DNA from: Catajapyx aquilonaris
Taxonomy: Eukaryota
Length of the DNA stretch: 38,506 bases
Reading direction: 5' to 3'
NCBI GenBank assembly: GCA_000934665.2
Contig: KZ538963.1
Coordinates: 1 to 38,506 of the forward strand
Shown: one piece after another, positions 24,401 through 27,400 of the stretch
Layout of the letters: each line of letters opens with the position of its first letter
Position numbering within the stretch: position 1 is the first letter of the stretch
The notes under the pieces: generated by a model
What the model was told of the DNA's origin: nothing
Databases searched by the model: none
The model's input: the letters and a program-made list of their open reading frames with translations, nothing else
Position numbers and translations under genes: made by a program

Positions 24401-27400
24401 GGCAGAGACATCCATGTAGCAATTCTGGTTGGGAACGAAAAAAAAGTGCGTACAATTCTCAGATGTTAGTGCCACCCCATCCCTACCCACCCCACAACAC
24501 AAATAATTCATCCGCCACTATATAGTACCTTTAAAAACATACATACGCGAGAAACCATTATATCAACGGCCACACTCGAATACGGGATGACCTACATTAC
24601 ACACGCGAGTCAAAGAAATGTCCTTACATTTGGCCCCATTTTTTGACATTAAAAAATTGCGCAATTAGAGTATCCGATTGAGGCACTAACAACCGGTGCG
24701 AAATGGAATGCAATTCATTATTTTTGTTTTTGCGCCAAATGGATGGACATTAGCGTGACTCGACCACAGGTTCATACATGCCATGCGGATTATTCAAATT
24801 AGTCAGGACTCGAATTTAGCTGGGCATCTGTCATAATTTTGCCAAAAAAAATTTTGAATATTTTGGACGGTACTTTTTTTTTTTTTTGGCCGGGTTGGAA
24901 ACATGTGACGCACATGAAGGAAACTTACTTGAAGGCGAAGGAAATGAGAGAGACAAAGACGACCAGCAGATCCAGCAGGTTGAAAGCCGAGCGGCAGAAG
25001 GCTCCTTTATGAAGCACGAATCCGTAAGAGATCACTTTGAAGCATATTTCAATAGTAAAGACGCTGGTAAAAAAGTAGTCGAAATAGTTGAGAACCTGCA
25101 ACGAATAATAGTCGTGTAGAATTAACTGGAAGTGAGTTCATTGGACAACTACACAACTTACGACATTCCTGGCTGACTTGGAGTCCAAAGGGTCTTCTGC
25201 TGCCAACATGGCCGACGATATAAGAATGCAAGCCAGAATAACATTACTGAAGTAGCTGTGGTTACAAAACCAGTGGCAAAATATCCGGAATCTGAAACCA
25301 GGATGGGCATTAGACATGCCGAAAGGAAGGCATATTCAACGTGACATTACAGGATAGACACCAAAGTGAGAAGATATTAATCTGGATCACATGTTTTGTT
25401 ACATGGGGGATGGCAGCACACACTCTACATGTTTAGAACTACAAAAAACGTCGCGCCCGTGCCATTCTCTTGCCCAAGAAACCGGGATTAAAGTGGCTGA
25501 AATTGTTGCCTTTTCGTAAATAATTGTTAACTGGCGTTAGACGTTGTTTGCAGGGGGGTTTGACGCTCAAGTTGCCGAAGAGAAAAACAATCAAACACCT
25601 CTGCCCAAAAACACGGATATTAATTCATGCTCTCTAACAGTTACTTTTCTCAACATGGCCGAACTCTGGGAACAACACACACATGTATACGGATGTTGCT
25701 GAGAAAAGCAGCAAAAAGGACAAACTGAATACAAAAGCACCAGTTTTGTGTGGCCCCAAAGTAAAAGCTATCTAACTACACAGCGTCACGATTGGTGAAT
25801 ATAAATGCAGCACATGTAAATAAAATAAAACCACAGCAGCAATCGCTTTGGTAAAATATTCACGCGTCACCTGTTGGTATGAGAGAAAACGAAGAAGGAA
25901 GAATATTTGGGGATAGGTTCCTGCTTCACAGGTGCGCTGATCTCGGACAAGCGCCTGGGACGCGCTTTCTTGCCCTCACCCCCATCGTCAATGTACTCCT
26001 CACCCTCTTCTGCCATGGTTTCAAAAAAAAAATGGACAACAGAAGAGAAAAAAAGGGGGGAGTTAGAGATGATATGCAAGGGTCGAAACGTACCTGTTTG
26101 TGTGAGAAAACACAAAGAAGCTGCTTCCTGCAGGCACAGCTTTCACTTTCTTTTTGACTGTTAGTTCCGATATTCTCTTTGGCCTTGCGCTCGGTTTTTT
26201 GACACTGGGCACCTCCTGCTCCTCAGGATATGCTTCCTCCTCTGGAAATTATTGTGTTAGGACGGGGGAAACAAGTTGGGGGCTTTTTTTACAGCCGAAT
26301 TCAACCTCAGAAATTATTTCCAAAATGGATTCTGAGGGGTTGCCCGTAGAAACAACCAAGCCAAGTCAAACCACATTGAATCAACACTTTCTCAAGTTAT
26401 TTTTAGTCGCTTTCCACTTTCTGCACTTGAACTACTAGTAGGTCAGTTAATTTTCTGTCGAACTAAAATTAGAAGAGAAAATTGCTCATTATGCAATCAA
26501 ACATTTTGCTTAATTTCTCTTCCAAAACTGAGAAACACTCTGAAAAATGATTATTTGGGTCAATTGTGAAAAAGTACCGAGAGTGATGCTTCAAGTGCAT
26601 GTCAAGTGAAAATGACTCAAAATAATTTAAAGTGTAGGTTGTGCTGACAGGTTTTCAGATTCTGCCTTAGTGTCGCTTCGGGCACATTTTTAGAAAATTG
26701 TGGCTACGTTCACTATTCAGAGAGAGAAAGAACTGCCGAGGGGAAGGAGTTAGAAATTGTTAAAAAGGCGATGAAGCTCTAATTATACTGGAGAAGTTGA
26801 ACCAAAAAAAAAGTATACCGGTAATTGAAAACATGATAATAGTTTGTTTACCTGGAAGCTCAGGCTCAGCTGGTAGAAACACAACAGAAAATTGTTGTTG
26901 TTTTTTCGTTGGAGAAATATAAAACCACAACTCTGCACCGTTCATAAGTTGGACGCCAACTTACCATAATTCTCATCGTATTCTTCGTCCATGTCCTCTT
27001 CGTATTCTCCTTCTTCGTCTTCCGGTTCCGCCTCTTCATATGGTGGCTCCTCATCTGGTGTCTCAATGGGGATCTTCGTCTCCTTCTCGTCTTCTCCTCT
27101 GTGAAATAAACTCATAGTTAGGTTTAACTTTTAGTTCGTTGGATTACTGTTAATTAAGGGTGACTTACCCAGCATTTTCTTCACCTTCAACGCCTTCTTG
27201 TGGTTCTCCTTCAGCTCCTTCTGCCTTTTCAGCGCCGCCTTCTCCTTCGCCAGGAGCCTGAAAAGGCAAAGGAATATCAATCACGCGGATGCCTTGTACT
27301 ATCTCGAGGGATTTTACTCACCTCGCCTTCTTCCTTCTCGACGGAACTAAGAGACTCGGCGTCTGCCAGGTTGTCAACAGCGATGGCCAAGAAGACGTTT

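Follow-up and report, generated by a model that had tools for sequence, protein, structure and literature searches.

How are two adjacent, homologous exons of the same phase kept from being spliced to each other? The question is raised by a pair of exons, here denoted a and b, in a calcium-channel gene of Catajapyx aquilonaris. The gene lies in a contig (KZ538963.1, GenBank assembly GCA_000934665.2) of which positions 1 to 38,506 of the forward strand were analyzed; this entire stretch of 38,506 nucleotides (nt) is referred to below as the window. It occupies the minus strand from about 35650 to 15400 and, judging from its domains (Pfam matches of its exons to GPHH, E-value 6.6e-24, and to Ion_trans) and its best similarity to named L-type subunits, is a CaV1 (L-type) calcium-channel alpha-1 gene. 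In exon-by-exon tblastn comparisons, it aligns with the Tachypleus (horseshoe crab) 'muscle calcium channel subunit alpha-1-like' protein (P0003) and likewise with the L-type proteins of Centruroides (scorpion) and Phaedon (beetle); by sequence, it is an arthropod-like CaV1. The exons were placed with an ortholog-guided splice model of 31 junctions, built from coordinates. Exons a and b appear to be a mutually exclusive pair that is probably held apart sterically, by a branch point of exon b located too close to the donor of exon a. The features on which this interpretation turns are, in the order of transcription:

26965..27098, minus strand: upstream constitutive II-III linker exon, 134 nt, ending in phase 1, with the 5' splice site GTAAGT at 26964 (from sequence reading and a junction search)
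26256..26262, minus strand: conventional branch motif of exon a, TCCTAAC (score 9.0), whose branch A at 26257 precedes the acceptor AG by 15 nt
26094..26241, minus strand: exon a, 148 nt (3n+1), a divergent copy of the distal II-III linker/pre-IIIS1 exon, with the 5' splice site CAG/GTACGT
26010..26093, minus strand: intron between exons a and b, 84 nt, GTACGT...GGCAG; exon a ends ...AACAG at 26094
26062..26068, minus strand: CTCTAAC, predicted to serve exon b as a distant branch site; its branch A, at 26063, is +31 from the exon a donor and -53 from the exon b acceptor
26023..26061, minus strand: polypyrimidine tract directly 3' of the predicted branch site, 36 of 39 nt pyrimidine (92%), with the purine-richer GAAACCATGGCAG between the tract and the AG
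25871..26009, minus strand: exon b, 139 nt (3n+1), with the 5' splice site CAG/GTGACG
25870..25292, minus strand: intron between exon b and the IIIS1 exon, 579 nt, in which a conventional branch motif, GTCTAAT, precedes the acceptor by 18 nt
25162..25291, minus strand: downstream constitutive exon, the start of IIIS1 (from the junction search)

Both exons are entered in phase 1 from the upstream exon (27098..26965) and exited in phase 2 to the IIIS1 exon, and the upstream donor at 26964 must pair with one or the other. Among 33 aligned codons, exons a and b specify the same residue in 19, in 15 of these through a different codon, and over the last ten codons the encoded protein is identical with seven synonymous differences. 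Because the shared residues are kept despite the synonymous differences, both copies are under purifying selection, and the comparison identifies them as real and old copies. Exon b has the K-Y-S-S-F-F form that is also present in 11 of the 12 proteins retrieved with it, the twelfth (P0002) containing two copies. Exon a has the G-S-S-F-F form; a-type copies are present also in three related loci (L004, L005 and L006, described below), in P0002, and in a gene model of Timema douglasi. A search with exon a among proteins of 87-2000 amino acids (aa) yielded 17 candidates, none of them at E<=0.1.

The reading frame is open through upstream exon, a and downstream exon as well as through upstream exon, b and downstream exon. 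When a and b are joined, the product reads ...HTNRRG-stop: a TGA is reached three codons into b, at codon 96 in the construct used to test the junction, and skipping of both exons connects the upstream and downstream exons out of frame. Nonsense-mediated decay (NMD) is therefore available as a backstop, and this frame incompatibility is certainly a second layer of exclusivity beside the branch geometry. Incompatibility of U2-type and U12-type splice sites was also considered as the cause of exclusivity and rejected: the donors of the upstream exon (GTAAGT), exon a (GTACGT) and exon b (GTGACG) are all U2-type.

The key to the first layer is the geometry of the short intron between the copies. 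An earlier note on this DNA had described an 84-nt intron with its best branch motif, CTCTAAC, at position 31 (branch A at 26063), and both statements hold: the intron extends from 26093 to 26010 on the minus strand, and CTCTAAC is its sole YTRAY match and its top-scoring heptamer (8.5, against at most 7.2 elsewhere in this intron). The long pyrimidine tract and the lack of an AG up to the acceptor some 53 nt further on, described in the same place, are found as well, the terminal AG being the only one in the intron. The yardstick offered there, a 55-nt intron of the same gene (19200..19146) with a likely branch A at position 39, is recovered in the splice model, where TGTTAAC is the best heptamer, its A being at position 39 and the acceptor 16 nt further on. 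In 16 of the 18 short introns (55-87 nt) other than the a-b intron, the top three candidates listed include one that scores at least 7.0, at a distance of 12-30 nt from the acceptor and of 39-74 nt from the donor. The a-b arrangement is also unique among the 23 introns of the gene that are at least 70 nt long, being the only one with a YTRAY match at +20 to +36 followed by 90% pyrimidine over 40 nt; in the two others that have such a match, the pyrimidine content after it is only 47% and 62%.

The window pattern gains its weight, convincingly at the level of sequence comparison, from its recurrence in related loci. Metagenome contigs were scanned with an alignment of this exon, which gave 289 pattern matches and seven confirmed CaV1 loci. 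Four of the seven hold a single copy (one of these is cDNA-like), and the remaining three, L004, L005 and L006, contain both, an a-type (...GSSFF...) followed by a b-type (...PPY[ST]SFF...). The b-type exons of these loci, denoted b', are, respectively, 205, 214 and 214 nt long and share the 3n+1 length of a and b. L005 and L006 are close relatives (intron 75% identical), L004 is further removed, and the window is far from all three, with 59-69% identity in the exons and 28-31% in the introns, which are essentially unalignable. The intervening introns of L004, L005 and L006 measure 270, 267 and 235 nt, about three times the 84 nt of the window. In each of them, a CTAAC or CTAAT motif is positioned as in the window, with the branch A at +26 and +30 in L004, +30 in L005 and +31 in L006, and in L005 and L006 it is the only YTRAY match of the entire intron. 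The 45 nt after the predicted branch are 84% pyrimidine, and the introns are free of AG from about position 10 to the AAGCAG or AAAGCAG acceptor, including the 204-244 nt between predicted branch and acceptor. An alignment of the four 5' intron ends with MAFFT shows an invariant CTAA, and the preceding 20 nt are not conserved. The heptamer at +30/+31 is top-scoring in all four introns (8.5-8.8), compared to 6.5-7.5 for the best candidates located 10-50 nt from the acceptor. In shuffles, the probability of finding no AG downstream of +33 is 0.004, 0.014 and 0.021 for the three loci, and that of a YTRAY match at 24-33 is 0.09-0.16 per locus. Conservation of the spacing in relatives, which the earlier note had named as a check, is thus seen in all three two-copy loci among the seven, with the top heptamer at +30/+31 and, in L004, a further motif at +26. 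The predicted donor-branch spacing is thus conserved while the intron length varies, as in the design of alpha-tropomyosin exons 2/3 and OGDH exons 4a/4b. Taken together, the 26-31-nt spacing, the growth of the intron only downstream of it and the purging of AGs fit the distant-branch model and, on comparison of these loci, would be hard to explain otherwise.

L005 and L006 additionally contain a (GT)n block after the U-tract. The best-guess acceptor of the a-type exon (a') in L004-L006 is preceded by a region with only 35-40% pyrimidine, and its assignment is tentative.

Two protein records add weaker support than these loci. The gene model of Timema douglasi (P0013; CAD7195708.1) extends through the two copies, which are separated by about 24-25 codons; these residues put the estimated intron length at about 74 nt, and this shows only that the copies lie close to each other. 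P0002 (four identical members) has both copies about 97 codons apart, and there S-N is followed by 23 residues of which 21 have T or C at the second codon position. These residues would be compatible with TCTAAY plus a tract at about +24, a reading at the protein level and not DNA evidence. When the 91-aa read-through open reading frame (ORF) of the window, which comprises the intron and exon b, was searched for close relatives, two matches were obtained, neither of them over the intron part. The Timema model also includes two consecutive copies of the IIIS5 exon (residues ~375-448 of P0013), which suggests a further duplicated pair that the window gene does not have.

The mechanism to which these observations point is as follows. 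Exon b would use the distant CTCTAAC (A at 26063), 53 nt upstream of its acceptor, rather than an acceptor-near branch. U1 on the exon a donor and U2 on this branch could not both assemble productively on the same 31-nt stretch: the U2 small nuclear ribonucleoprotein requires some 25 nt of RNA on the upstream side of the branch, where its proteins make contacts, and at a spacing of 31 nt this region would overlap the U1 site. The exon a donor would therefore not be spliced to the exon b acceptor, leaving two states. In the first, U2 would be bound at the branch of b, the upstream donor at 26964 would be spliced to b, and exon a would be lost in the lariat; in the second, exon a would be defined and its donor spliced past b to the IIIS1 exon (acceptor 25292). 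Rare a+b products, or products of double skipping, would be passed to NMD. Because of its strong branch and tract, exon b is probably the default choice. The predicted donor-branch distance is +31 in the window and +26 to +31 in L004-L006, compared with a minimum of 39 among the good candidates, also predicted, of the short introns of the gene. The proposal of the earlier note that a and b cannot be joined because of a clash between U1 and U2 is accordingly supported as the probable explanation, with a predicted branch and a steric threshold for this organism that we infer.

Several observations weigh against this interpretation. When the interior of the window intron is shuffled 20,000 times by mononucleotide, a YTRAY match with the A at 24-33 appears in 9.9% of the cases and an AG-free interior in 45-61%, so that in the window alone both the motif and the AG-free state are near chance and hardly go beyond it. 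Weaker acceptor-near candidates are present in the window intron, TGTCCAT at -23 and TTTTGAA at -11, and in L004 an AAATGAC at -29 has a score of 7.5, the same as the branch presumed for a different exon in the window gene. All three two-copy loci (L004:1610-1625, L005:1258-1270, L006:1708-1722) share a conserved GTAAATTG that precedes exon b' by 14-45 nt and could act either as a decoy donor or as a proximal branch of low strength. For two of the 18 short introns, the branch candidates are all weak and would be at +27 and +34 from the donors, and because of these the in-gene minimum of 39 is not airtight. The threshold assumed for arthropod spliceosomes, about 38 nt, is a figure that Mount et al. 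reportedly obtained for Drosophila in 1992. The comparison effectively comprises three lineages, because L005 and L006 are not independent. Furthermore, the frame incompatibility itself (both exons 3n+1, with a stop in a+b) would hide any leaky joining of a to b. Finally, the donor of the upstream copy of the IIS5 exon (IIS5a) is also followed by a U-rich tract, with no branch motif there; tracts of this kind can therefore serve other purposes, and part of the conserved tract in the a-b intron may be a regulatory platform.

Some of these points make up the case for exclusion by frame and NMD only, in which b uses a weak acceptor-near branch, a+b is spliceable and degraded, and the CTAAC at +31 is a leftover of the duplication. 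The length of both exons, the stop three codons into b, the frame shift on double skipping, the near-chance statistics of the window alone and the existence of proximal candidates are all as expected under this scenario. What it leaves without explanation is the retention of the motif at +26 to +31 in unalignable introns of three-fold greater length, the more than 200 nt without AG downstream of it, and the top score of the distal heptamer in all four introns; accordingly, it appears unlikely as the full account.

An equally improbable alternative is that the CTAAY motif and the U-tract are mainly a protein-binding platform, either a TIA-1-like enhancer of the donor or a PTB-like silencer of b, that sets the ratio of a to b, with the branch elsewhere. 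The tract after the IIS5a donor, a 92% pyrimidine 40-mer with AGs present and no branch motif, is one precedent within the gene, and the window tract contains UCUU/CUCUU-type motifs. Vertebrate exons with distant branches are controlled through their tracts by TIA-1/TIAR, PUF60 and PTB (PMC7969005; see also PMC3060452). On the other side, a long AG-free zone that has an invariant CTAA, abutting the tract, at its upstream end is what characterizes a branch with its tract: long AG-exclusion zones are described as predictors of distant branch points at their upstream end (PMC1431707). A platform function is also compatible with steric exclusion by the distant branch and does not exclude it.

A mechanism based on competing RNA structures, with a docking site and a selector as in insect Dscam or 14-3-3xi, is very unlikely. 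Imperfect complementarities of 14-21 nt connect the T-tract of the intron with A-rich segments in either exon a or the upstream intron, and all such pairs are of low complexity and only 76-86% complementary. In L004-L006 (L004:1389-1420, L005:1010-1045, L006:1493-1530), the donor GGUUAG is complementary to the CUAAC/CUAAU at +26/+30, with which it can pair, and is paired with it in the minimum-energy fold. The z-scores of this pairing are only -0.9 to -1.45, the hairpin is not present in the window, and the folds from donor to branch are no better than those of shuffled sequences (z of +1.1 in the window and -0.9 to -1.45 in the loci). Inverted repeats around the exon cluster amount to 37 pairs, all weak or of low complexity, and no conserved covarying complementary boxes were found in the orthologous loci. 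That exon a is a decaying, never-used pseudo-exon is hardly credible: the lack of a-type matches at E<=0.1 among the 17 candidates and the purine-rich region before the best-guess a' acceptor in the three relatives would fit, and they are outweighed by the open frame of exon a, its good donor and TCCTAAC motif, the last ten codons that retain the residues of b through seven synonymous changes, and the a-type copies kept in L004-L006, P0002 and Timema.

The steric block by a distant branch, which remains the preferred explanation, has well-characterized counterparts. In rat alpha-tropomyosin exons 2/3, Smith and Nadal-Ginard reportedly mapped in 1989, by experiment, a branch at distances of 41 nt (donor) and 177 nt (acceptor). 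The principle is that a branch located within a few tens of nucleotides of the preceding donor prevents the two exons from being spliced to each other. The parallels are the adjacent exclusive exons, the branch of the downstream exon at a long distance from its acceptor and at too short a distance from the upstream donor, and the long pyrimidine tract with an AG-free zone between branch and acceptor. The differences are that alpha-tropomyosin is a vertebrate muscle gene with a mapped branch whereas the present case is an invertebrate ion channel with a predicted one, and that the distances here are 31/53 nt in the window and 26-31/204-244 nt in the relatives.

Another counterpart is OGDH 4a/4b, where exclusivity is enforced, and the intron constrained, by distant branch points at 25-41 nt from the 5' splice site (PMC7969005). 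Vertebrate OGDH is described there as having a conserved donor-branch proximity, a 'megaPPT', an AG-exclusion zone and intron changes only downstream of the branch, all as in the loci compared here, and UG-rich partitions in its tract resemble those of L005 and L006 (PMC7969005). Unlike in the present case, its branch points, which form a cluster, are mapped and its regulators identified; gene, phylum and threshold also differ, about 50 nt being proposed for vertebrates (PMC7969005). The same paper also ties the combination of distant branch and megaPPT to Ca2+-regulated products (PMC7969005). In the human genome, steric interference is predicted for 57 of 629 clusters of mutually exclusive exons, by the same criterion of a short intervening intron whose predicted branch is nearer to the donor than a threshold allows; these are single-genome predictions, whereas here the spacing is compared across divergent lineages (PMC5740500).

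As regards the channel family, the available sections of two reports list three mutually exclusive events each for vertebrate CACNA1C and CACNA1D and two for Drosophila Ca-alpha1D, with exons 15/16 so annotated (PMC9741552, PMC4174434). Tandem exon duplications are frequent in CaV1, and the window gene likewise has pairs for IS6 and IIS5. Unlike the a/b pair, none of the events in those sections is placed at the II-III linker/pre-IIIS1 position and no branch-point mechanism is proposed there, the Drosophila supplement giving the gene name only (PMC9741552, PMC4174434). The literature searched on this event includes no II-III-linker exon pair in arthropod CaV1, which is not proof that none exists, and the same searches, to which this absence is limited, returned no description of a distant-branch exon pair in an invertebrate.

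The window gene contains other elements of interest. The tandem homologous pair for IS6 (32355..32458 and 31425..31528, minus strand) consists of two exons of 104 nt each (3n+2) separated by an 826-nt intron, and its position matches that of vertebrate CaV1.2 exons 8a/8. The pair for IIS5 and the pore loop (28978..29179 and 28137..28347, minus strand) comprises exons of 202 and 211 nt (both 3n+1) located 630 nt apart; the upstream copy is the one followed by the pyrimidine-rich 40-mer discussed above, and for the downstream copy, the conventional motif AAATGAC is located at -20. An 87-nt intron inside IIS6 (27411..27497, minus strand), three introns upstream of the exon pair, looks U12-type, with the donor GTATCCTTTT and with CCCTTAAC, whose branch A lies 13 nt before CAG. 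It is the only such intron in the window gene, and its counterparts in L004 and L005, judged from read-through translations, start like U2-type donors. The 723-nt intron before exon a contains a possible phase-preserving micro-exon of 18 nt (26853..26870, minus strand), with the acceptor ...TTCTACCAG and the donor CAG/GTAAAC; this candidate, put forward from sequence alone, would add six residues to the linker. Outside of the channel gene, the window encodes a CAF1-family ribonuclease exon in a neighboring gene (3965..4573, minus strand; Pfam E-value 4.2e-48) and a weak FAM167-like ORF (11467..11793, plus strand; E-value 0.004, below the Pfam cut-off), and a run of N at about 9200 marks an assembly gap.

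To our knowledge, a handful of vertebrate genes have provided the detailed evidence for steric exclusion by a distant branch. Discussions of mutually exclusive splicing in invertebrates usually center on competing RNA structures or on very short introns. The mechanism is thus already known, and the a/b pair in CaV1 is an additional case of it. Whether the pair is an ancient two-state selector, common to several arthropod-like lineages, with U1 and U2 sites 26-31 nt apart, and the first distant-branch-enforced exon pair of an invertebrate, appears to us an evenly balanced question. The same even odds apply to the corollaries of such a selector, namely that the spacing is fixed by selection, that the intron grows only downstream of the branch with AGs purged there, and that the arrangement is an independent parallel to the Ca2+-linked design of vertebrates (PMC7969005).

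If the steric explanation is true, the distant-branch design would be older and more widespread than thought, and it would explain why the intron between the copies can expand on one side only. It also points to a pair of channel isoforms that would differ just before IIIS1, including an RRLS/KRIS basic-serine motif, and would provide a conserved and easily tested case in an arthropod-like L-type calcium channel.

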